Of a stretch of 64,000 nucleotides of DNA, positions 2,578 to 17,922 are shown piece after piece; position 1 is the first letter of the stretch, and each line of letters opens with the position of its first letter. Below the pieces are notes generated by a model that searched no databases, was not told where the DNA came from, and saw nothing but the letters and a program-made list of their open reading frames with translations. Location of the stretch: contig JYFJ02001466.1 of assembly GCA_000934665.2 (NCBI GenBank), forward strand, positions 1 to 64,000. The letters run 5' to 3'. This DNA comes from Catajapyx aquilonaris (Eukaryota). The translations under genes were made by a program, and so were the position numbers.

Positions 2578-3970
2578 ATGGCCCGATTTCAAAAGGTTAG
2601 TCGATTAGAATCATGGACCTGGTTTTCATATTGGTAGAATCTTGGGTGTATAAGGCCAATAAGCTGAAAAAGTGTGCACATACACGGTGTTAGTTAAAGA
2701 TATTCAAGAAGGTGGTCAGCCAAACCGGACTGTGCCGCATTCCAAGGAGCAGCTTTGTACCGGGTGGGTCATTACTCATTGGCTGTTTGGAAGGGGCCAT
2801 CCCCACAATTTTTGGGATATAGCTTGGAGAGAAGTTGGCGGAAATTACGGCCAGGTTGCATGCTAGTCATGTGGGAAATTGAGAGTTTTCCCAGGGTTGC
2901 CTGCACGAAGGGTCCCATATGTGACCCCTCCCCTTTTCACTGGATTTGAATAAAAAAATGTACATACGCACTGATTGGTTTATTAGTTTTTGCTACTCAT
3001 TGTAAATATCAGATGTATGTCAATGTTGAAAATATAATTAATTTCAGAATGGTCGCATTATGTTGGAAGAACTATATGACGTATATCACCCTTAATAGGA
3101 ATAGTACGTGAATATATAAATAGTTTTGCCAGGGGGTTCTATTGGTGACGTTTGCAGGAAACGCACATGTCAAACTGACCTTAGTTCACGCTCGGTTGGG
3201 AGATATTCCAATAGCGTTCTGTCATCTGTTGTGTTGCGAATGAATAGATATGTCACTCAAAATGGTAACAGCTACATCCCAGTTTTCACCTCTCTATATA
3301 ATAGAAATAGAGCAGTTTTTCTGCGATAGTCCACCGGATAGGCAATAGTCGCACCCTACTTTCATATCGCTCCAGTTTTGAAATGACATTGTCTTTTCGC
3401 TTCCCTGCCGAACTATTGAGAAATGAAATTTTCTATTACGTACTGTGTTTATAGGCTATAAAACTGTTATCTACTCCATCGATTAGGAAGGAAAATTGGG
3501 TGTCTCACGTGTTCAATGACCGTGGGATGGATGCCTTCTAGGGCAGCAACTACTGTGCTGTCATCATACGCATTCCAGACTAGACCACATTTACACGTGG
3601 GAGTCGATCATTTATGTCATTATCGAAGGAAAACTGGATTACCTCCAGGGTGTGGGTGTGAAAAAAATTGGTAACATTTCAAGTTTTTTTCTTTCTTCTT
3701 CATGCGATATGGTGGCTTGATAACCTGAAAAGCAGTGGTCATTACTACTATAAAGGCCCCCACCATTCTTTTCAAAAGCAAGGTCTCGATAGCGAAAAGC
3801 TCCGTTAGTTGCATTTTACGGCCATTACCAACACATCATATTCTTAAACAGTTAATATATTAATAACAATAGCTCGTCACACAAGAGTTAATCCGTACTT
3901 CCCCTCAATTTAACCTCACTCATGCAAGTCTAGGAGTGGTACAGTGCTGAACATTAATGGTGCCATGTTC

Positions 3971-4037
<67 letters not shown>

Positions 4038-7000
4038 GGGTCCGGTACCACCACCACCACCGACACTAGAGGATCCTCTGGTATGCGATGATGTCCAGTT
4101 TGACTCCCTGCTGTCTCGACTGGACACTCGAGGATTGGTCAGTCTGATTAGGACCATCCAGTCTCGGATGGTATCGGAGCAGACGGCCTTCGAGGCTCTG
4201 GGAGGTCAGCTGCAGGAGGTCACAAACGACCTGCAGCGACAGGAGCTGTCGGTGCAACTTTGCGCCAGACAAGCTCATCTGGCGCAACTTTGCGCCCGCA
4301 ACCTCCGCTGCTTTCTTCAACACCAGGTGGGTCGCAATGGCCATGTACGGCCGAGTTTAAGTTCTTTGGTCCTTTTGGCACCCACTCGTCCACGACACAC
4401 CTATCTGGCCATAACTTCCTCCTACGAATATCTGCAGGTACTCTTCCCTGTTTTAACCCTCCACCGGCCAACCTTGCTGAAGAGGTTGCGCTTCACACTT
4501 CACTGTGTCGTACTGTTGGTTAATGAGGCGGTTTGAAACATTTTGAATACATCTGTCAGCCTCCATCTCTGGTCTGTTGTTACCGCGACACTTTCTATTG
4601 GCCCAGTTCTGCGCGTGCGCAATGGTGCAGAGACAGCGCCTCTGGTGGGTGAGAAGACTTTACTATGGGAGACAACTTTTTTGACATGTATAGTAATCCC
4701 TAAAGTGAAAGTCTTGTCGTAGACAGTCGGTATGCAAATCCTCCTTCAGAGTCACTAGGCGGTTCATTGAGGTAGGTGTACAAAAAACTCCCTGGGGCAG
4801 GACAGGTAGCTCTCTTGGGGACACCCCCAGAATAGCAAGGCCACAACCCCCATCAGCAGGTAGGCGGATTTTCAAAGGGTGCTATGGCCTGGATGGAAAA
4901 ATACACTGACCTTGGTGGGCAGTGGCACGGGGGCGTCGTGCAGCAGTGGAGGCGTCGCGTGGGGGCCTCCTTTGGATTAACCACTGGTGGTACAGGGGGT
5001 GCTCCACCTTACAGACCGTCACCCTCCACCTCCTCCGCATCCATCTTCTCCTAGACCACTCGTCCGTGCAATCTCTCCTCCAGAGCTAGTAGCACAAAAC
5101 TTCCTCTGCCATAGTACACTGGTGCTCTTCGGAAGGTACGCACCATGGCTTCACTCCGATCCGCTTATCTTCTCATGGCGTTAGAGGTGAGCTTTTTTTT
5201 AATTTTCTCATGGAAACATCCGGTTCGTGTAACGCACCGTTATGATCAAAACAGTTCGGGAGTCATTGCGTCCACAGATGGTCGTCGGGTTTGTTATTGG
5301 GCTTGAAAGGTAGTGGTGTGTGAAGTATGTGGCATTCTTCCTTGTGTAGTCAGGCGTCCAAGTCACTCTGCCATTAGTGATGCTGCTAGATGGACAGGAT
5401 GGTATGGCAGAAGGAACGCAAATGTGAGTTTATGGTGTCAAAATTAGTCGCTAATAGCAGAACCGGTTGTAGCAGTGGAAATTAGGGACGATTTTTGATT
5501 ATGTCTAGGTCATATCGTGTAGGCGTGGGTAGGTAACGTAAACTATATACTTTTCCTGATAATTTGGTGCATAATGAAAATAACCGAAACATAAGGAAAT
5601 CCTTATCAAGGTTGGGCGATGAGATAACTGAACAGAAACGAATCTGCTCGTGCATAGCGGCTTGGCACAAAGTGTACGGTATTTCTTTTTTATACCAACC
5701 TATTAGTAAGGTTTACGGGTAGATATTAGTTTATGAACTAAATTGTCCGGCTCCTTCACCTCTTGTCGTATAGCGGTTATTTTTTTTTGATGGATCGACA
5801 TGCTTTGAACACACTGCCGTGAAGTCGCACGATGCATAAAATTAGGTCTTAAATATTCAACACCTCTTATTGTCTCAAAGACATTGTGATGTACAGTCTT
5901 TGCAAAATATTTGGAGCATACATAAGTACGACTAAACAGTCAGGAGGATGTCGCAGAAGATTTTTTTTGTGTGTGGAGTGTTTGATCTCCGAAACATTAG
6001 GCATGTAACTAGGACTTGTTGTTCTTTTTTGGAAAAGCGTGAGTGCCCAAGGACGCATACATGACATGGGATGGACTGGTAAAACTGGAACAGTGGTATA
6101 TGTGAAATCAAAGAAAGCGTGGTACCCTGAACCTGTGGTGCTAGCAGGGGCATCCCGAATAGAAAGGAATACCACAACCGGTACATAAGCGTCCAGTACT
6201 TTCTCAATACATCGACGATAGCCTCCAGGTTTTAACTGCCTCCAATTTTTTGAACTTCACGTGTACGGTCCAATCTGATACGTCGGACTGCTGAGAAATG
6301 GGACACCAAATTACATCCGGAAAAAGGCCGGACCTGCCCAGCACATGACTTTCAAATTCTCGACTGGTGTTGAGCCTCACCCTGTACGTAGCACCTGAGG
6401 AAGACACAGGTTTCCACTCAAGATATACCCATAAAGAAGCCCAAGTTATTACCGTGTTGACGAAGTCGTGACATTTCCACTAGGAAGGTAAATTGCTATT
6501 TATAACCCGTGTAATTATTACTACATAGACGTAACAATTTAGTGTGACGTATAACCGTCCTTAGATAGTGACATCACAAAAGGGCGGAATATAAAGTAGC
6601 CATAAATTGTTCAATAAAGCAAACATCACGCCCACTTTAGGGTTCGAACATTAATTACTTTTGTTCATTGTAAACATCACGAAATGTATTTTGGGTCCCA
6701 CGGACTGTCAGTGACTCTGATGTCCTATTAGTGGAAAATGTACAGGGTGAGTCATAACGCCGTCAGTCGAATCAGGCGACGACGTCCGATTACCAAACAG
6801 GGCGTTGTCGCAAGTATATGCGACCGTCCTTGACGTTTTGCATGGGATCAGCAGGAGACTCGTGTAGAGAAAGGGGGTTGGGTGGGTGTCATGGCGTAAG
6901 GCTTGTGCCGTTAACTGACCCACCACGAGACACATTTCCGCCTTCTAAAAACCGACAGATAACAGCCAGGCAAGCACTTGACACGAAGGTGGCCACCTAC

Positions 7001-10000
7001 TTTGTCGCACACATTCTCCTTCTTCTTCTTGCAATTCGGGGGCATTTGGACCAGAGCTTCGAGGACGTGGGATCCCTGTGGTTCTTTTCCTTCCGCGGAC
7101 GCACTTTGGCGGAACTAACCTGGAAGGGGCCTCGGTGGCCAGAACGGTGTCCATACCGTGACGCAGGGTTTTTCTTATTGCAGAAGCAGCAGCAACAGCA
7201 ACAACACAAGCCTCCTTTAGCACCGACAACAACAGCAGCAGCGGCACCACGCCCACGTCCGGCAGGTCAGGAACCTCATTTGGCCGTCGAATCTGGTGGA
7301 CGAAACAACGTGAGTACATTTTGAGAAAGTTGTGGTGCATCTCTAGAATGAACCGGAAGTGTGGGCGGAACAATCACGAAATGGTAAGTCGCTCTGTAAA
7401 ATGAATATTTGTTATCGCCTACAAGTTGCCATTCTTTTCGTGACTGGTTACGCCCACACTTCCGGTGCAATCTTGCACTAGATGCGGTTTGTAAGGCTAG
7501 TGCCAAAATCACTACAAGTACTGCAGTGGGTTGCATCGCAATCAAGGTAGATAATCAAATCAGGATTTAACGCATTATTATTATTCATTGTTTATAAATA
7601 ATAGCCAGCAATGAATGAAGTCCGTTAAATCTTGGTCAGATCATCTTGATTGTTGTGGCCTAAGTAGGTCTACCACTGAACTACTCTACTGCTATAGGCA
7701 CCTCTGGGGTACAATAGTTGTCACCATTGCTGCTTTTCGTGATGTAAGTTATGTGAAAACTGTTAATAAACTGTACCGTTGCAGGAAGGTTTCTACTCGC
7801 TACCACGTCGACGTCCATTGTTCAGGCCGCCCAGCTGGGACTCGCTGAACAATAGAGACGACAGCGATCTGCCGGTACGATCATCGGTGGACCACGAGGT
7901 GCAGGAACGCTCTAGACGTCTGCTGAGGTCGTGGAGCGCACTGGACGTGCAGGTCGTGCCCGATGACGAGGATGACTGCTGGGGACTCGGAAGAGGACAA
8001 CTGGCACGTGCACCGTCGGTTGAGGAAATCCTAGCGTCGGTCAAGGCTCTACGGCAACGTCGACCCCAACAGGAGATGGGTATCCTGGGCAAGGAGGAAC
8101 CGTGCTACGCCAACGTCGGGATAGTGCGCGGTGCGGCCGACGGTGCTGAAGAGCGACACTATGAGAACGTGATCAGGAAGGACACGGTCGTGCATAAGGA
8201 AACTGTGTACGAGAACGTGCGAGTGCCCGTCACTTATGACGTACCAAAAAGCGCGGTACATGTGTACGACACGCCCAAAAGCAGCAAAACCAGCAGCCTA
8301 ATCCCTACAGCCGCCCGACTTGTGATGCGCAGTGTCATCAAGACCAACAGACACGAAGATGAGGAATGTGAAGCCGATTCCCTTGAAGGTGCGGCCTCGA
8401 TGGTGCCGGACATACCTTCTCCAGGTAAAGCCACAATCTTTCCCCTAATACGCTTGGATGTTTGGCCGACCTAATACTACCGCTATCTATCGCAAGGTGG
8501 CAGGAGTGTACAGAGAGAGTGTGCGCCATCTATGCGTGAAGAATAGTGGTAAATCCGGGCAAATTGATTATCAATCATAATTTTGGCAACATGTTCGCTA
8601 GGAATGCAATAATACCACAGCAAAAATGTATGAATACAGGCGAATATTTTGACCGGAATTAAGCGGGGGTGGTTGGGGCCATAGGGCGTGGGCCTCTGTT
8701 ACCACGACGATGGGGAGGAATTTTTCCCCATTCTACTTCGAGGTAATAAATGCTGCGGCCATGCAGCTAGCTGGGAGCAAGGTCATCCTGTGCTGGCTGG
8801 TGCCCTGCGGCCATTCTTCGGAGGGGGAGGTTGGGTGATTACCTGGGCTGGGCCTACTTTTGTTCCTCTGCTTCTTCCAGACTACGGCAGTGAAGAGGAA
8901 GAGGACCTACTGGAAGAAGAAGAAGAAGAGGCATCAGACGAAGGTCTGGGCGAATCGGACGAACGAAGCTTCTACACTGAGGATCCAGGTTAGTAACACA
9001 CCTAATTGACATTAGTGTGGTTAGCATCATATTGAACAAAAGTGGTAAAAGGCAATGACATTGCCCGGATGGACGTTCAGTGCGGCATGAAGAGGATGAG
9101 TTTGAAAGCGGATATAGTGATGGCGAAATGTATGGACCATTCATGCACGGAGTGTACCTGAGGGACAAGTGCGCAGGTGATGTGAAATGATTGCCAGCTT
9201 ATGACGAGGTGCTTGAGACACCTGACAAAAAACAAAAGGTGACAGGAATTGCAATGTCACTGTCCTCGTTTCCTGGCCTACATGACGTAAATGTTGAAAA
9301 CGTTAAGACCGAAAAATGGACGGAATTCAGAAATGTGACGTCATTTAGGTCCATTCATACTGATACTTTTTTGCAAGAAAGCTGCTTGCCAATAAAATTA
9401 TGAATCATAAAATAATTAATACCGTAACAAGGTTGCGTGATCGTTGGTCAATCCAGAACAAGTAATTAATCCATAATTAGGGTTGTGGATAATATTACCG
9501 ATCAATTTACCAGCAAATAGTATACCATATTACGCAACGATGTTGATGCCTCACTTAGTGCCAATTCAAGCCTCACGTCATACCAGGAAACGCACACAAA
9601 AAACGGAAATGGCAACAAGTGTCATACCCCGCGAGATAAACTCATCAACGCACTTCAGTGGATCTTATCTGACTTTTTAGAAACCTCCTCACCGACACTA
9701 CAACCACACCCTAAATCCCTCCATATGTGGCATCATGTCTTTATTTGCACTTGAAAGCCTAATCGAAATATTATATTTTGAAAATATGATTATGTCTACG
9801 CTTTTATAGGATCTCGCTAATTTATAACTCCAACTTTTTCACTATAAATTGTTAGGGTATGTTTTTACGGAAGGACTTTTATGTGGGGAGACCGAATGTG
9901 GCAGCGGTAGGGGCACGCTGCCAAGGCTGTACTTTCCTTCCCGGCAGATACATGCATATTTTTCAGCGGATACATGCCTACGAAAGTGAATACGTAAACT

Positions 10001-13000
10001 AATATCGTAGCAGTTTTTCCTGTAGCCTATACATTTCATAGTACAGAGTTGATTTTGGTGACGTTTTCATGGCACCCATAAGCGGTCACTTTTATAGCAA
10101 TTACAATATTGTACTTTTATAGCTTGTTTTGCGTTAATGCGCCTTTTGGACTTGTAGAGAGTCTGCGATGTTTACACTCATAGCACGTGACCATTTCCGT
10201 CATGCTTTCCCTCTCCCAACACAATATTGAGAAAATTGCCTCCAAATTGCATAACCGTTAGCCTACACAACCCCCTCAATATCCGTCGTATCTGCATTAA
10301 ATCGCGACGTTTAACCCTTTCATCTGGTCTGGACCCAGTGACCTCCCATCCAAATGACTTTCCACGGCCACAATTACACCCAAAGCGGAAGAGTCATATC
10401 CACCCTTGGCAAGACATCGATAAACCGAAGCCAGTACCGCACACTGTACGCGACCGTATCCTAGAAACGTAATCGGCTGAGATGTTGATCTATGTTGATT
10501 GCTTGCTGGAGTCGAGCCCAAATTGGGGCAGTGCAGCGAAAGGGAAAGAGGTTTACGTCCAGCGACCAGCAGCCACCACGGAAGACCGGTTTGGATGTGG
10601 TGAGAGGCACCCGCATGTGTGTTGCCTTCTCTCACGTAGTGTACATCAGACACGAAGAATGGCTGGAGGTGTGCATCAAGGCAGGAAGTGACGCCCAGTA
10701 GAGCGAGGCACTCGTTCGCTGCCCTCAGTCGTCGTGTCTTCAGCCTCGGGCCAAGATGCTGGGATTCCTGGACTGGATACTGCTGGTCCTGGTGCTGTCT
10801 GTGGTCTTCTTGGGAGTGTCCAGGATATGGCAGGGTAACGTCTGTAGGGTGACGAGAGGAGGCGGTCAGGTCCTAATATGTGTGCGAGGAGCGTTCCCGG
10901 AATGTGAGATCATCGGGTGTATATAGGTGGCCCTGAGGTCATCGACGGGTAGTCGACAGCTGGATTGTGTCGGAGCAAGTAACATATCGGTGGGTAATGT
11001 CCCCAGGTCTGGAGGTCATACTGGAGGAACCGGAAGAGGAGGAGGGAGGAAGCACCACCAAGGACTCATTGGCTGTTGCGACGACTCCGATCATCGCCGT
11101 CAATGGAGCATCCACCTCGACGTCCCCTACTGCATCGGAAGGCGTCTGGTCCGCCGACGGCGCCGACGTCGATGACGTTTCCGGCAGACGAGCTTCCGGT
11201 AAGGATGAATTCACACTGGGGTCGTTGGGCCGATGTTGGGAACACGCTGAAAATTCGTGCATAAAAATATTCACTAGGTGCATGAAATTATTCACTAGGT
11301 GCATAAAATATTTCAAGGTGCATAACATTAGGATGGCAAATAATAAATTATTCACTTTCCTACATTGTTATAACACATACGAATTGATTGCAAAATAATT
11401 TTCTCACTATTTTTATTTGTTTTTCCGACAATTTATGCAGCTATAGTTTTTATGCCCTTTTCCCGGTATGAACGAACTTTAAGGTGACACTTAAAACCCA
11501 TAGGCAATATTCACCGCCCTGTTAACACCTCGGGTGCAGTACGTGTTGTTGCAAATGCATGAAGCAACCCTGCTGGCTTCCCCCTAGCCAATAGTTGCCT
11601 CCGGCCTACAGTTATCGCGTATCGCCGATATACCCAACAGGTGTTAGGTATTGTTTGACTTGATAAAAAGGCACGCAGTGGCAGTTATAATCCGACCAGA
11701 GATGTTGCATGCTACTCTGGCAGTTGGAAACACATTTCTGGCGCTGACCAAGCCAACAGGTTAGTCTCTTCTTATCTCTATAGGTATACTCTGGTAGACA
11801 CTTGGGAAGTAGGTCGTGATTTCGACAGGTTGCACAGGCCGTTTCGTAACCGGGCTGTACTTGATATACGGTATGACCAAGCCTGTACGGAGTCACCGTA
11901 TGCAAATTATTGCGTGTCTGCCCATATCTGATCAGCAGGTCGTGATATGCTGCCAGTTTATAGCAAGCCAAGTGCTATGAAATATTTTTACAGGATGATG
12001 ATCTCAAGGAATTCTTGCTCGAAAAGGTCCTTCAGGTTCATCCGTATCGGAAACCCGTTAAAAAGAAGGGGGGCACAAAAAACCACCGTTTTATAGGGTC
12101 GTATATGATGATACGCTGCTTTTCACCTGGCGCGACTATTACCCTGAAAAGTTCGCTCATTAAGGATCAGAGAGCCTTCTCTTAACTTCCGCCTTGGTAT
12201 GACTTTCACTTGCGGAAAAAGACAAGGACCGGAAATGCAAGGAGACTTGCACACCGGATACGTGACCGCTCTCGAAGTATCAGTACAAAGGGTAGTTACA
12301 GCCATTAAAAATTCTCATTAAGCTGTTTGTAATTAAGCAGCTACTTGTATCACCTGCTAGACTTATGTAGTGCAGAGCGATTAGCAGAGCACGTTGGCGA
12401 TGAGTCATTGAAGTGGGTCGGGACAAACTTGTGGACAGACAGAATTAGGGGTTTAGCCGGTATATATAGATAGCCATGGAAGTGACGAATTGCCTGTTTA
12501 TTTCATGTAGACTAAACCATGGTATAGATTTGGGTAACCTGTAAAAAGACGTGCTTTATTTTTAAGCACTTAATTAACTGCTTTAAAATAAGCAGCTTAC
12601 AATTATTTTTAATTGGAGCACGTTTCTGGCCTGGAAAGTACCACCCACATATCCACATAATTGGCTTGTGTCAGCTGGGGACAATGATGACCTAAAAATA
12701 TACGTATTGGGTTCAATTGACGGGACTTCCTCCGCATGCAGATGCAGGGCAGCAGACGGACCGATGCGTCGAAGTGTACCAGGAGACGCTCAGACAACGA
12801 GGGATGAAGAACAGCAGCAGCAGCAGCAGCAACAACAGCGACGTCAAGGCAAGTAGTTGGCGCAAATCAAGGTCGAATCGATGAGTCATGTCGTGTGTTT
12901 GTCGTTAGGCGGTGCGGGCGTCGTCGACGTCGGAGCAGCTGCCGTCGGTCAGGGCACTTCGCTCCAGATTCGAGCATCGTCACGACGGCACCGACGCCGC

Positions 13001-16000
13001 CCCCAGGATGGCCGTGCGACCGTCGCAGCCACCGCCGCCTCCTCCGACGGCGACGGCGACGGACGTCGTCAACCACTTGTCATCAGACGGGCTCAACCAC
13101 AAGGTCACAAACGGTGACCACCACCACGCCCACGGTGACCTACTGGACGGTGCACCGACGCCGAGGATCTGCACACGACGATGGGATCCGGTAAGGATTG
13201 TTCACCCTAGCAAAACCCATGCTCCAGCAACTGGGTCAAGGTCGTTTTTGCACGTGCTTGAAAATGTGTAATTGCGCGCAGAAATGTTGCGCAAAGTACT
13301 GTCGTGATTCACCTTCGACATACAGTTGCGGAAAAAAGTATGGTCGAATGAATTCAGCCGTTTTTGAAGTTTTTTTTCTAATGGCTCAGGTGGTGTTTAC
13401 TATTTTTTTATTTTATTTTATCAGGTGTGTAAATACGCGTGAAGGTTGCGCCTGCTTCGTATTTCTTCCGGGTTTTGTACCACTGTTAAACGCGGCGTTG
13501 ATGATGATGGCACCGCATACCGCAGGTTGTTTACTCCAGCAACCGTATTGTAATGCACATTGCTAATTAGAACGTGAATTGCTGATTGTCATGCACAATA
13601 AATAGGACACAGCTGCGTGGTATGTCATCGCCCAGAATCTCACCCATTGTGCATTAAGTGAAAATTGTTGACTCGAGCAACCCGTTGCCAACAGTGCAAC
13701 GGCCTTTGCAATATGCTTGTTATAAATATTAGATGATTTCACTGCAAAATGTGTATATCAACAGGTGAATCAGGAGCATGTTGGGTTGCATATGGGGTCA
13801 GGATAATGTCCGTTTTTATCCAGGAAGTTTTAACCTATTTTGCATAATTGGAGGAAGTATGGAGGGCACATGCAAGGAGGGCGGGGGAGGAAGTTGCTTC
13901 ATCTAATTGTTACAGGGAAGTATGGGAAGAGACGCCTACACATGGAAAATTCAGTTGGGTCAACAGTTGCATGGATGTGACATGATGATAGTGTAATACA
14001 GCACTCTTTGTCATTTCCAGACCAAGCTTCTGTCAATGTTGTATCACGTCCCGGAGGTGAAGGTGGGGAGCAACCCAGATGTGTCCAGCACCTATGTTAA
14101 CATGGAGGGTTACTTAGATGTGCTGCCGGCTGGACGCAAGAAAGCCACCTACTGGAATGCCTGGAAGAGGCGGTATGTACGTGCCAGGGATGGTGTCCTG
14201 CGTGCGTATGACTCTGCGGCTGATGCAATGGCTGCGGATGAGTCAGAAGATGCTGAAGAGCCGCCGGTGTCCATGTGGTTGTCTGGAGGGAACGTGGATG
14301 TGAGTGAGGCCACCACGCTGACCAACGGTGATGGAGGAATGGTGGGAAGGGACAGGCAGCCACTAATGAGTTGCATCCTCGGGGTGGATGATGGCCGAGG
14401 AAGATATCTGACTCTGAGGACACCTAGCAGACAGGAGTGCGAGAGGTGGCGAAGAGCACTGTTGACTCACACGGTGGAGAAGTGTGATGCACATCTGGTG
14501 CGGCCATGGCCACTGCCAAGGGAGCCGGAGCTGTTCAGGCCTGCAGTCATAATTGAGCTCGGGAGCTCCTCCATACGAGCAGGGAGGCTCTGCACACAAC
14601 GTAAGTGCAGGATGGTTTTGCAGATGGCTAGAAATTCCTTACAATATAGAGAGCAATGCATTAGGCAAACTCTTCTACAAGTATAACAACTTGTCAGTGT
14701 TATCGATGACATTAATCTACATCTATAGACAGTACAATTCTACAGTATGAAGTTGTCAACATTTTCACAACCATTTAATTTATTTTTCCAGCGGTCCTCC
14801 CACAGCTGTTCTTCCCATCAGTTGTAGCTGTGGAACGTGAGACATCCAAAATCCACTATGGGGCCTCTGCCCTCCTCCCGCACATTCGATCCTCCTCCAC
14901 CTTACACTATCCCCTCCGCCCATCGGAAAAGATCTCAAAGTTTGCCCTTGAAACCTCCCATCTGCATGGACTCTTCACCCACATTATCCAGTCACTCAAT
15001 GTCCACCAACCATCTGAGATGGGAGTCCTCTTAGTACTGCCACGTCGCTTCCCCAATGCCACGCTGTCCCTCCTGGCTGCCATCCTTCTGGAGGAGCTTG
15101 GTTGCAGGTGGCTGGCAGTCTGCAGGCAAAGTGTGCTGGTGCTGTATGCCTATGGAGCCACTACTGGAGTTGTGGTCGACATAGGGGAGCGCACTGATGT
15201 AATCTCAGTGTCCGAGGGATACCAGACGTATGGCAGTGACACCCGGATGCCATGTGGTGGGAGGGTCTTGCAAGAACAACTGCGTCCAGCATTGGCACAA
15301 AGGCAACGAGTCGGGATCACTGGTGAGATGGAGGCGCTGCTGCTGAGGTTAGCTGCGGAGAGCCTGTGCTATGTGGCCAGGGATTACAAGGATGAGCTGA
15401 GGACAGCTGCTGAGGAGCCAGGCTTCTGCGAGGGCAGCGTGCAGCTCAGGGAGTTCTTTTCTGAAGAGGAATGTCCTTGGGAGTAAGTACCTCCCTTTTC
15501 ATGACACCTTTTGCACTTTTAAGGCCTCATGAAAGACATAAAATACTAATGTTATGACCGTGCATTTTGGTGTCATCTTCCCACTGCTGTACTTCACAAC
15601 AGACATGAGATACTCTGTAAAAGTCAGGGCAACAGCTATAAGTGATGTGTTTTATCATTTTGCATTGCTTAGCAGTAGAAATATAACCACACGTATGAGA
15701 GGTATAAAATATTTTGTAGAAACATAATATATCATCCTCGTTGTAAATGTTACGTATGTTACACATCAAGCATATTTTGATGCATCAGAGCCTAGATCTA
15801 AACTACACCTTGCTCTCTTCCTCTCCCTTATGCAGTTTGGAAGAAATCCCAGAGTAAGTACTGATTTTCATAAGTGTTTGTCCAAACATATATTCGTTCC
15901 GGCTGTCCTCCAAGCAGACTGCAATCAGAATACATTATTTATATGCTACACGTGGCCATTCTTGCTTACCCCATGATTTCCAAAAATATTGCTGCATTTA

Positions 16001-16468
16001 CACCAGCTAAAAAGCTGCAATCAAAAATGTCGTATGGTTACACTGAAGTAAAAACTAAATAATGTGTTTCTTTGCAGTGAATTAACGTTGGACACTGGCA
16101 GATTCCAAGCTCCGGAGGGTCTGTTCCAGCCAAGTTTATGGGGCTTGGACCAACCAGGACTCCACCGTTTGGTCCACTCGGCCATCCAAGAATCGGGACT
16201 GGACCTCCGCCGTGAAATGGCCCGAAGCGTGTTCCTGTCTGGTGGTCTCTCCCTCATCCCCGGATTGGCTGAGAGGCTGCAAGACGAGCTCACCCTCCTG
16301 CTACCCCCTGCCGTTTCCCCAAGGGTTCATGCCTCTCCATTCAGATACCATGCAGCCTTCCTTGGGGCTACACAACTCGCCAACCAGACCCAATTCAGGC
16401 AAATTCAGGTCTCCAGGAATGAATGGAAATCAAACAGTAACAATGCAATTGCTCGCTGGAATCTGTAA
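2578..16468 (+). CDS. Long-isoform model of a PH-domain plus C-terminal actin-like-domain protein (~1170 aa) with a helical N-terminus and a long disordered region
   Basis: Phase-consistent exon chain 2578-2595, 4039-4326, 7184-7309, 7785-8424, 8881-8988, 9081-9176 (weak acceptor), 11007-11198, 12742-12848 (GC donor), 12909-13190, 14021-14600, 14792-15482, 16078-16468, totalling 3519 nt in one open frame. Linkage of the exons upstream of 7184 is inferred from phase and the FLQHQ|KQQQQQQH junction only. Confidence 0.6.
3971..4037 (+). repeat. (TTA)n microsatellite, ~22 units
   Basis: Directly visible; runs into the AG acceptor at 4037-4038. Confidence 0.97.
10684..10730 (+). promoter_or_regulatory. 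Candidate internal promoter of the PH-actin gene (GGAAGTGACG motif plus TCAGTC initiator)
   Basis: TCAGTC matches the arthropod Inr consensus TCAKTY and lies about 30 nt upstream of the ATG at 10756. These are short motifs and could occur by chance. Confidence 0.4.
10756..10834 (+). CDS. Putative alternative first exon of the PH-actin gene encoding a hydrophobic signal/membrane anchor (MLGFLDWILLVLVLSVVFLGVSRIWQ)
   Basis: ATG in ccaagATG context, 26 codons plus 1 nt, CAGG|gtaacg donor. Phase 1 matches exon 11007. TCAGTC Inr-like motif at 10725-10730. Confidence 0.65.
11258..11325 (+). repeat. Short tandem repeat, ~21-bp unit (gtgcataaaaatattcactag), ~3.3 copies, intronic
   Basis: gtgcataaaaatattcactag / gtgcatgaaattattcactag / gtgcataaaatatttcaag / gtgcataa. 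Confidence 0.8.
14021..16468 (+). CDS. Core PH domain plus actin-related (Arp-like) domain exons of the same gene
   Basis: PH: MEGYLDVL...WKRRYVRARDGVLRAY...YLTLRTPSRQECERWRRAL. Actin fold: AVIIELGSSSIRAG...PQLFFPSVVA; RQSVLVLYAYGATTGVVVDIGE; ESLCYVA; GRFQAPEGLFQPSLWGLDQPGLHRLV; VFLSGGLSLIPGLAERLQDEL; RYHAAFLGATQLA. PH and actin start lie in the same exon (14021-14600). AATAAA overlaps the stop codon (16467-16472). Confidence 0.92.
15836..15853 (+). CDS. Putative 18-nt frame-preserving microexon (adds six residues, LEEIPD) within the actin domain
   Basis: Long pyrimidine tract with TGC motifs (ccttgctctcttcctctcccttatgcag), perfect gtaagt donor, phase 2-2 matching the flanking exons, no stop. 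Confidence 0.65.
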
Positions 16469-17394
16469 TAAAAAGGGTAAAAAAATGACTTAAACTTCTT
16501 AGGGTTGCTCAAAATGTAGGACGAATCAAAGAATTGAAATTCAGATTGTAGTTTACAGAGCAGCGCTATTCTGCATGTTAATGTAGCATGTGTGTGCAGA
16601 GAGTTTTAACTTAATAACCCACAGCATTGTTGTATATACTGATTCTCTGACTACAATGTTGCAAGCTAAGATTTTAAAACTCTATTTAGTGGTCTGTAAG
16701 CTGCAAAAAAATATTTTCTGCATGAATAATGAAGCACAATTTTACCTTGTCTCAATCCCAACAAATGTCAAATCTTGACTGATCCCCTGCAATAACAATG
16801 ATTCTGGAGGACTGTGATAGTGTGTAAGCTGGAGAGAAAATTTACTTTGCCACCATAGTTTCCTGAAAAATAAAAAAGAGTGTGTTATGTAACAACGAAT
16901 TAATTATTTGACTGCATTTCAGGTTGTGTTTACATGTGAGCAGTTGATCAGCAATGAGCATCGTTGAGCGATGGAACCAATTGTTTGGGGCGAAAGTGAC
17001 AATAATTGTGGTAACTATTCCGGTCCGTTCCAAACAATTGGTTTCATTGCTGGGCGAATCTCTCACATGTAAACGCAGCCAACGGGTCTACCTCTATGTA
17101 GCATTCCTATCCTCCAAATCTGGTTCTGGAAGAGAGGTCAAAGTTCAACTGGGCTGCACTTAGGATCCACCGCAGGTAAAGAAAGTCAATAGACCGGCGT
17201 AAATAATTTATGCAACACCTACCCCTGAATCAAAGGGGCAAACAAAAATATATGTCAACAATGCAATTCCCTTCCCAGGGAATTGGACTGCAACAATTGA
17301 TCTGAGCACTAGCACTATACAACAGAATTATCAGAGTCGTTACAATTTTGCGTGTCCGTTAATCGAGTTGTCGGGATCTACATTTTCGGTTCAT

Positions 17395-17922
17395 CTACTG
17401 TCTCTGCGATTCTCTTCTTCCTTCCTCCTTGCCCTTATTTTCAGGCCCTTGCACATTATCTTTGAGCTGAATTTCTTGATCAAGTCTCTCCTTTGCACGT
17501 ACCACCTTCGACTGCAGGTAAAACGACCCTCCCTTCGCCTTGTCATTGACACCGAACAGGTGGTCAAAGCTCTTCTGAACCGTTTCTTTCTCAAGGCCAT
17601 CCACATTCAGAATCTTCTGCGCCTCCTCCACTGATATGCCTGTCCGCGCATTGGCAGCGGCACGTTGGGCTCCAGCTTGCCCACCGCCACCTCTTCTGGC
17701 AGCTTCCTGACCAGCAGCAAACTCCTGGTGGGTGACACATCATTAGAACTCGTCACATTAATTAGGTGACTTAATTAGCCTGACAAAATAGCCAGATTGA
17801 TGATCATTATGATGATGAAATTTAGGCCATGCGGCCAGCAATACCTGCTTAAGTGCTCTGGCGAAGGCTCTTCCTAGGACCTGGGTCCCGGTGATGATGA
17901 TCTGGACCAGGTAGCGGGCCAT
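17395..17922 (-). CDS. PAM16: Mitochondrial import motor subunit PAM16/Tim16 (Magmas), 135 aa, two exons
   Basis: Exons 17922-17845 and 17724-17395 encode MARYLVQIIITGTQVLGRAFARALKQ|EFAA...GISVEEAQKILNV...FDHLFGVNDKAKGGSFYLQSKVVRAKERLDQE, the hallmark J-like domain of PAM16. Confidence 0.97.

Follow-up and report, generated by a model that had tools for sequence, protein, structure and literature searches.

Is the stretch between positions 14021 and 16468 of a contig from Catajapyx aquilonaris (JYFJ02001466.1, assembly GCA_000934665.2) part of one gene in which a PH domain is fused to a divergent actin fold, and what might such a protein do? The window analyzed here comprises the first 64,000 nucleotides of this contig. 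A sequence-only reading of the window had proposed the fusion, bounded it at 14021..16468 and considered the product a probably non-polymerising, membrane-recruited scaffold. With high confidence, we find that 14021-16468 holds the final three exons of a larger gene, encoding a PH domain followed by a divergent actin-fold domain at the C-terminus. The gene almost certainly spans 4039-16468 on the plus strand, starts at or before 4039, and has at least nine exons and a product of at least 1,092 residues. As to function, we lean slightly towards a nucleotide-binding, non-polymerising and membrane-recruited actin-like module that would dock actin or actin-binding proteins, as suggested by sequence and structural models.

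PH domain and actin-like domain

Transcript evidence came from public run X1, the only run found, which carries 45% of the sampled words of the window and whose library type is not on record. Its contigs, aligned to positions 3500-17500, skip five GT..AG introns (8988/11007, 11198/12742, 13190/14021, 14600/14792 and 15482/16078). The last two are the junctions named in the sequence-only reading, and both are skipped by a single contig of 1,486 nucleotides that covers 14440-14600, 14792-15482 and 16078-16711 with three differing letters. A second contig connects 12907-13189 with 14020-14148. These spliced contigs therefore join the PH exon to the actin exons and to the upstream exons. The intron-less form, seen in assembled contigs of one study, is most simply RNA-derived. 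The phases fit at the joins, c/cg giving Pro at 14600/14792 and ga/t giving Asp at 15482/16078, and the 3′ untranslated region (UTR) reaches at least 16711, the contig end. A candidate micro-exon at ~15836-15854 was rejected, as the contig splices 15482 straight to 16078 and the homologues align gap-free there. The C-terminal part of the gene is organized as follows.

14021-14600, plus strand: exon A, PH domain, linker and first actin-like β-hairpin with the phosphate-1 loop; one open frame, contig-supported junctions, AlphaFold model
14099-14461, plus strand: PH domain, residues 22-142 of P0001 (Pfam PF00169)
14792-15482, plus strand: exon B, actin-like subdomains 2, 1 and part of 4, with the short DNase I-binding loop (D-loop), the Q137 equivalent and the DIGERTD phosphate-2 loop; Pfam Actin 56.1 bits, PDB actins at ~1e-15, junctions in a contig
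16078-16468, plus strand: exon C, actin-like subdomains 3 and 1 with the adenosine loop LSGG and the stop codon TAA at 16466-16468; Pfam Actin 93.5 bits, gap-free to actin 248-367

P0001 denotes the translation of exon A counted from the Met at 14036, which is internal, for the similarity to relatives extends 5′ of it. Pfam PF00169 matches its residues 22-142 with an E-value of 2e-6 and 28.7 bits, compared to a cut-off of 25.1. The AlphaFold model of the window's own exon A (mean predicted local distance difference test score (pLDDT) of 83.1) displays seven β-strands (residues 23-30, 44-51, 54-58, 78-81, 86-91, 113-118 and 124-129) and a C-terminal helix (residues 132-146). Structural similarity search using Foldseek returned PH domains, isolated or within larger chains such as dynamin, Grp1 and GRK2, for all 50 listed PDB matches, among which are SKAP-Hom, kindlin-3 and the lipid-binding Grp1, Akt and DAPP1. 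By sequence, exon A has no PDB match at E ≤ 1, and in the protein Atlas it meets weak, generic PH clusters (0.79). The phosphoinositide-binding signature of PH domains consists of a Lys ending strand 1 and a K/R-x-R opening strand 2. The family consensus, ..LEKLPSGRKKAT.WN.WKRRYF, carries this basic signature; the window has Val instead of the strand-1 Lys and keeps GRKKAT and WKRRY. A linker of about 20-25 residues with conserved prolines leads from the PH domain to the start of the actin-like domain at IELGSSSIRAG.

Exons B and C both match Pfam Actin (PF00022, curated cut-off of 27 bits), the former with an E-value of 3.2e-15 and 56.1 bits over profile positions 26-190, the latter with 1.4e-26 and 93.5 bits over positions 270-407. 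Given these profile ranges, the actin parts are in the right order and together nearly complete. Every motif quoted in the sequence-only reading is present in the translation: IELGSSSIRAG in exon A, RQSVLVLY and DIGERTD in exon B, and LSGGLSLIPG in exon C. Among PDB sequences, exon B retrieves actins at ~1e-15. Exon C aligns without gaps to actin residues 248-367 (2.9e-24), its chain stopping at the equivalent of actin's last residue; over the last 128 residues of the protein, the match to actin is gap-free, and the plug region has the same length as that of actin. Judged by sequence, the resemblance of exons B and C to actin is far beyond chance.

The differences in length lie elsewhere. Between the equivalents of F31-P32-S33 and T66-L67-x-Y69-P70, the D-loop region has 24 residues in the window versus 30 in actin, and it lacks the hydrophobic tip of actin's D-loop. 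In addition, the domain gains about five residues after position 90, a single one near 200, and roughly nine within subdomain 4.

The full domain was modelled on the homologue P0019 (Ladona, 715 residues, ~43% identical to the window) with an alignment of 40 sequences. The AlphaFold model has a mean pLDDT of 79.2 and a predicted template modelling score of 0.74; the PH domain, linker and actin domain mostly exceed 90, whereas the N-terminal 175 residues are disordered. Foldseek listed conventional actins for 50 of 50 matches, with template modelling scores of 0.89-0.94, root mean square deviations (RMSD) of ~2 Å and identities of 26-28%. VIA-align, run against one chain per 40%-identity cluster and showing no separate rows for Arp1 and Arp2, placed actin first (Z-score 42.4, RMSD 1.6 Å over 344 residues, 31% identity). 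Then came two trypanosomatid flagellar chains (37.7 and 35.3), the actin-related proteins (Arps) Arp3 (35.5) and Arp4 (34.7), a BAF53-type Arp (34.5), Arp5 (33.5), Arp11 (32.6), Arp6 (32.5) and Arp8 (29.8). A family profile searched against PDB aligned to actin residues 7-372 with E-values of 1e-66 to 2e-72, and the chains listed, 60 of 60, are actins. With conventional actin as the best match and lower scores for all listed Arps, orthology to a characterised Arp seems unlikely. Neither is it a conventional actin: identity is 26-31%, the D-loop is six residues shorter, and the H161 equivalent is Asp or absent.

Altogether, the fusion of a PH domain to a divergent actin fold holds at the level of Pfam, of the single frame of exon A and of the contigs that join the exons. 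The PF00169/PF00022 search and the two named junctions came out as the sequence-only reading anticipated, and its reading of the motifs and of a shortened D-loop agrees with the alignments. Its gene span was right about the last three exons and too short otherwise: they are three of at least nine, and the gene does not start at 14021, an internal splice acceptor that a contig connects with 13190. The interpretation thus holds in part: the gene proves three times larger than described, and the suggested role in capping, nucleation or the binding of actin-binding proteins is a hypothesis.

Upstream exons, helical domain and disordered middle

Contig joints, supplemented by splice sites in the sequence that keep the phase, yielded a nine-exon model that runs in one frame through 1,092 codons with one stop, at the end; seven of its introns are GT-AG and one, of 60 nucleotides, is GC-AG. 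Searches with homologues by tblastn revealed the extra upstream pieces at ~4078-4368, 7833-8423 and 12753-12974. The six exons upstream of exon A, which have no Pfam match, are the following.

4039-4326, plus strand: N-terminal helical domain, 96 codons, without a start codon; AG at 4037-4038, GT at 4327
7785-8424, plus strand: disordered-middle exon with LPRRRP, PSVEEIL..SVKALR, three YxNV, two YDxP and PDIPSP; homology to P0006 and P0015, AG and GT in phase with the neighbours
8881-8988, plus strand: exon with the acidic motif DYGSEEEE; acceptor predicted from phase and the homologue motif PDIPSPDYGSEEE, donor 8988 spliced to 11007 in a contig (GT..AG, cut +4)
11007-11198, plus strand: exon with the motif GLEVILEEPEEE; both ends joined in spliced contigs of X1
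12742-12848, plus strand: exon with DRCVEVY and poly-Ser/Asn; acceptor joined to 11198 in a contig, GC donor at 12849 predicted from frame and homology
12909-13190, plus strand: exon with the motif LPSVRALRSRFE and WDP at its end; acceptor predicted, donor 13190 joined to 14021 in a contig

Two joins of this model are predicted. That of 4326 to 7785 is in frame and lacks contig coverage, so more exons may lie between; that of 8424 to 8881 was deduced from phase and a homologue motif. The contigs of X1 also lie partly on 6769-7702, with loose ends at 7201 and 7226; these pieces could be further exons of the gene between 4326 and 7785, or a repeat. The 60-nucleotide intron (12849-12908), with the GC donor AAG/GCAAGT, sits just 3′ of a CAG/CAA repeat. 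It is predicted rather than observed because the repeat at 12799-12846 was skipped in the contig alignment, and the frame requires it. At the 5′ side, a perfect (TAT)22 microsatellite at 3971-4036 abuts the acceptor of the N-terminal exon; it may serve as the pyrimidine-rich tract, and the repeat length may influence splicing.

The exon 4039-4326 encodes a helical domain of ~85 residues. Residues 25-105 of P0006 match it at 51% identity in tblastn, P0015 and P0004 match it as well, and a blastp search with P0187 found the domain in 40 family proteins, including those of tick, scorpion, mussel, the nematode Plectus and a crinoid. It has no relative in Pfam, PDB or the protein Atlas (best Atlas value of 0.77, nothing meaningful). 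A complex prediction of two copies, in which the alignment was unused, scored 0.01 and speaks neither for nor against dimerisation. In decapod and amphipod isoforms of 2,000-2,800 residues (P0193, P0141, P0007, P0189, P0195 and P0012), the helical domain lies 450-1,220 residues inward; these isoforms have either genuine N-terminal extensions or gene models fused with an upstream gene.

Between the helical and PH domains lie ~440 mostly disordered residues rich in Ser, Glu, Arg and Asp, which share the motifs LPRRRP, PSVEEIL..SVKALR, PDIPSPDYGSEEE, GLEVILEEPEEE, DRCVEVY, LPSVRALR..FE and WDP..LL..LY with relatives. A similar short motif occurs in two exons, at 8013-8063 (..PSV..IL.SVKALR..) and at 12939-12974 (LPSVRALRSRFE); relatives keep the pair as PSVEEIL.SVK.LR and LPSVKALR..FE, and no Pfam family matched it. 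The idea that the SVKALR-type motifs are WH2 motifs was set aside by eye, their spacing misfitting the WH2 pattern.

The middle region of the window also contains three YxN and two YDxP motifs, compared to 0.27 and 0.06 expected from shuffled sequences (p ~0.004 each). Three YxNV and the two YDxP are packed into ~60 residues (~8100-8270, within the exon 7785-8424). Such motifs are enriched in ~5 of 30 members tested, P0006, P0046, P0011 and P0033 included, and a cluster of this kind occurs in crab, ostracod, centipede and two further relatives; as none was found in chelicerate, mollusc or nematode members, we rejected the cluster as a family-wide trait. The SH2 domains of Grb2 and of Crk/Nck prefer YxN and YDxP motifs, respectively. 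Because the motifs fit these specificities, the cluster looks like a lineage-specific phosphotyrosine docking region of pancrustaceans and myriapods, as judged from sequence.

Downstream of the gene, a convergent neighbour on the minus strand (17398-17739) carries a Pam16/Tim16 domain (PF03656 in Pfam, with 107 bits and E = 7.8e-31); within 1 kb of its end lies the 3′ UTR described above.

Distribution and conservation of the family

A phmmer search with exon A against 1.84 billion representatives revealed 133 proteins at E ≤ 1e-3, 61 at E ≤ 1e-10 and nine at E ≤ 1e-30. The long proteins among the 133, 34 in number, were scanned with Pfam. Actin was recognized in 33 of them (78-205 bits), and PH was listed in 31, above the cut-off in 24 and below it in seven, leaving three without a match; where both are listed, the PH domain lies directly N-terminal of a C-terminal actin domain. 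The unannotated homologues that the sequence-only reading had thought possible in other invertebrates thus exist, with the same architecture in 33 of the 34 long homologues tested. Of the 40 proteins retrieved with a profile, 39 carry PF00022 and 34 carry PF00169. The word-indexed search with exon B gave one longer match (Plectus) and none among the near matches; it is insensitive for this family and therefore uninformative on its rarity.

According to the names available for 19 of 30 clusters and 32 of 40 profile-search rows, the family occurs in crustaceans (decapods, krill, barnacles, an amphipod, an isopod, Artemia, ostracods and a copepod), in myriapods (centipede and millipede), and, among insects, in mayflies and odonates only. 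Chelicerate members come from horseshoe crab, scorpions, spiders, ticks and a sea spider, and members in other phyla from bivalves, cephalopods, a nemertean, the nematode Plectus and the crinoid Anneissia. No member was seen in vertebrates, neopteran insects, Drosophila, Caenorhabditis or cnidarians by these searches, which are no census. The record names are uninformative: ‘uncharacterized’, ‘hypothetical’, ‘PH domain-containing’, ‘actin-like’, ‘putative actin-26’ and ‘serine-rich adhesin for platelets-like’. Two distinct copies each were seen in the horseshoe crab Limulus (P0024/P0142 and P0035/P0177) and the lobster Homarus (P0198 and P0212), and one cluster in every other named species.

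A quick IQ-TREE tree of 35 rows (the window and 34 named homologues, unnamed rows being excluded and the careful search unfinished) mirrors the species tree, and places the window inside Pancrustacea with an SH-like approximate likelihood ratio support of 97. Over its 556-residue PH-actin module, the window is 43-45% identical end to end to arthropod homologues. The family has very probably been inherited vertically across arthropods, molluscs, the nemertean, the nematode and the crinoid, with the window as a pancrustacean member.

Conservation was computed on 34 rows (the window and 33 homologues), with actin positions mapped by eye from the printed alignments; the numbering and the cleft, barbed and pointed residue sets were assigned by hand rather than by a tool. 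The mean frequency of the top residue is 0.78 in the nucleotide cleft (37 positions), 0.59 in the whole domain, 0.62 in the barbed face (52 positions) and 0.42 in the pointed face (44 positions). None of 5,000 random samples reached the cleft value, and none fell to that of the pointed face. The equivalents of D11 (as D or E), G13, S14, Q137, D154, G156, E214, G301 and G302 are kept. Other positions carry changes conserved in the family: K18 and G158 are each replaced by Arg in at least 90% of rows, D157 mostly by Glu, and K336 by Tyr; one residue is deleted at 160, and an Asp stands at or beside the H161 position. The claims of a kept Q137, a changed phosphate-2 loop and a lost H161 are borne out, the H161 equivalent being Asp or absent.

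Proposed function and comparison with known systems

We propose the following course of action for the module. The actin-like cleft would still bind a nucleotide or another anionic ligand, as we infer from its conservation, which exceeds that of all other parts in the family. Hydrolysis is more probably slow or missing than not, because the equivalents of K18, G158, D157, K336 and H161 are changed. Polymerisation in the manner of actin is unlikely, given the short D-loop without a hydrophobic tip, the insertion in subdomain 4 and a pointed face that is less conserved than any other surface; the domain would be unable to make actin's longitudinal pointed-face contact, and should therefore not polymerise. 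The ‘probably non-polymerising’ of the sequence-only reading thus gains support from the short D-loop and the poorly conserved pointed face. Through its conserved basic loop between strands 1 and 2 (GRKKAT...WKRRYF), the PH domain would, with fair probability, hold the actin-like domain at phosphoinositide membranes via the short, conserved and confidently modelled linker. Only tentatively do we add that the actin-like domain may be a fixed docking unit at the membrane, which offers its actin-shaped barbed side to actin or actin-binding proteins, while the disordered arm recruits partners, in pancrustaceans and myriapods SH2 adaptors; our reserve on docking stems from the average conservation of the barbed face. 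In variants of this step, the domain might act as a pointed-end anchor or seed in the manner of Arps, or as a decoy for cleft-binding proteins.

Several observations weigh against this proposal. Its functional part is inferred throughout, and the barbed face is no better kept than the domain average (P 0.17), which weakens the idea of docking on actin. The contrast between cleft and faces depends on hand-assigned residue sets and numbering, and loops are generally less conserved than cores. The structure of the full domain is that of the homologue P0019, a model, rather than of the window's spliced protein. The window itself sits on a long branch (1.2 versus a median of 0.16) and has an odd composition; its PH domain barely exceeds the cut-off and lacks the family's strand-1 Lys, and it has Ser where at least 90% of members keep the P164 equivalent. 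The YxN/YDxP clusters are missing from chelicerate, mollusc and nematode members and so are no family trait. Finally, X1 is not recorded as RNA and its spliced contigs stem from one study, the 5′ end of the gene was not found, and the 4326/7785 join was deduced from frame.

The competing explanation that survives best, though we hold it to be unlikely, is a nucleotide-stabilised protein-protein module unrelated to filaments, which would clamp an α-helix of a partner, or of its own N-terminal domain or middle motifs, in a membrane signalling scaffold. Nuclear Arp4, Arp8 and actin clamp the helicase-SANT-associated helix in chromatin remodellers, and nuclear Arps are nearly as close in fold to the present domain as Arp3 (Z-scores of 33-35). 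The family conserves the nucleotide cleft and not the filament contact surfaces, and the conserved N-terminal helical domain and the short motifs could serve as ligands. However, conventional actin is clearly nearest in structure and sequence, and the C-terminal 128 residues are free of gaps, so that the barbed side keeps the shape of actin.

An extension of our proposal, bolder and a shade less probable still, is an ancient, bilaterian-wide class of Arp, held at the membrane by a PH domain and marked by a two-arginine cleft, which would anchor or seed the pointed ends of filaments independently of Arp2/3 and, in crustaceans, would be switched by tyrosine kinases through the YxN and YDxP cluster. 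Such a class would have escaped cataloguing as part of a large scaffold for which the present searches showed no record from a vertebrate, Drosophila or C. elegans.

We consider it improbable that the module is a membrane-tethered actin isoform that polymerises or co-polymerises and anchors the filaments it joins. The full-length actin fold with 31% identity, the retained Q137 equivalent, both adenosine-loop glycines and many actin-identical invariant residues, and a plug region as long as that of actin would suit such an isoform. Nevertheless, its D-loop is ~6 residues shorter and without hydrophobic residues, subdomain 4 carries an insertion of ~9 residues, the pointed face is least conserved, and the phosphate-2 loop is changed at the equivalents of 157, 158 and 161. 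Even less probable is a canonical Arp orthologue, for example of Arp10/11, Arp8 or Arp5, with an acquired N-terminal extension. Some Arps do have long insertions or extensions and phosphate-2 loops unlike that of actin; but none of the 51 named cluster representatives (of 70 rows) is called an Arp, every listed Arp chain scores below actin, and all 60 listed profile matches are actins. An artefact, be it a neighbouring PH gene merged with an actin pseudogene or a decaying pseudogene, is hardly credible: the window copy is fast-evolving and of odd composition, but the PH domain and first actin hairpin share one exon and one frame, spliced contigs connect all flagged exons, 1,092 codons are open, and 33 of 34 long homologues, from several phyla, show the same architecture.

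Actin relatives are among the most studied protein families, and their accepted catalogue consists of actin, Arp1-10/11 and a few lineage-restricted orphans. Full-text searches of the literature retrieved no description of the PH-actin fusion, nor of any of 12 accession or locus names, which agrees with the sequence-only reading; supplementary tables, which could list loci, were not covered. The sequences are already in databases; neither the family nor its architecture or altered cleft seems to have been described. The finding adds an actin-like domain that is conserved, has a fixed PH partner and a distinctive, strongly conserved cleft, and occurs in several animal phyla under record names that state no function. 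Should the module touch actin filaments, most invertebrates would have a new way to couple membrane and cytoskeleton; otherwise, the domain would be a further example of an actin fold turned to scaffolding in a nucleotide-dependent manner. A soluble module of ~530 residues makes the hypothesis directly testable.

Compared to conventional actin (4pl7_A, 4efh_A), the PH-actin domain shares the four-subdomain fold and keeps Q137, D154, G156, E214, G301 and G302. It differs in ~70% of its residues, a short D-loop, insertions, an altered cleft and the loss of H161; moreover, it closes a chain of more than 1,000 residues in which a PH domain precedes it, and is unlikely to polymerise. With the Arps (1k8k_A Arp3, 3qb0_A Arp4, 6hts_H Arp5, 6gej_R Arp6, 4fo0_A Arp8 and 5adx_J Arp11) it has in common a divergent actin fold (Z-scores of 29.8-35.5), whereas Z-scores and identities to the P0019 model (18-25%) are lower than those of actin. 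Arps keep the nucleotide cleft, have altered pointed-face loops, and are fixed subunits of larger assemblies rather than polymers. We know of no canonical Arp with a PH domain.

In its PH domain and long disordered region with clustered YxN and YDxP motifs, the protein resembles the Gab/Dos, IRS and Dok adaptors, and SKAP-Hom (1u5e/1u5f), the top structural match of the window's PH model, also pairs a helical domain with a PH domain. Sequence homology to PH adaptors was not found, either for exon A against PDB or for the upstream exons against Pfam. Unlike in these adaptors, the PH domain of the family lies near the C-terminus and is followed by the actin fold, and the Tyr motifs are confined to pancrustacean and myriapod members.

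The actin fold also serves as a C-terminal module elsewhere. In Dictyostelium filactin, its partner is an Ist1-like domain. The Arabidopsis F-box protein SUSA2 reportedly has an actin fold at its C-terminus as well (PMC7562919). The partner domains in these proteins are F-box and Ist1-like, and not PH.

A parallel in status is offered by orphan Arps, for example Arp53D of Drosophila and the testis Arps of mammals; orphans of this kind are presented in PMC7038667 as actin-like, lineage-restricted and outside the defined Arp subfamilies. The PH-actin family likewise appears to fall outside these subfamilies, and we read it as an orphan actin-like lineage on the ranking of folds and profiles rather than on an Arp phylogeny. 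Compared to the orphans as presented there, it spans several animal phyla and forms a domain of a large multidomain protein.

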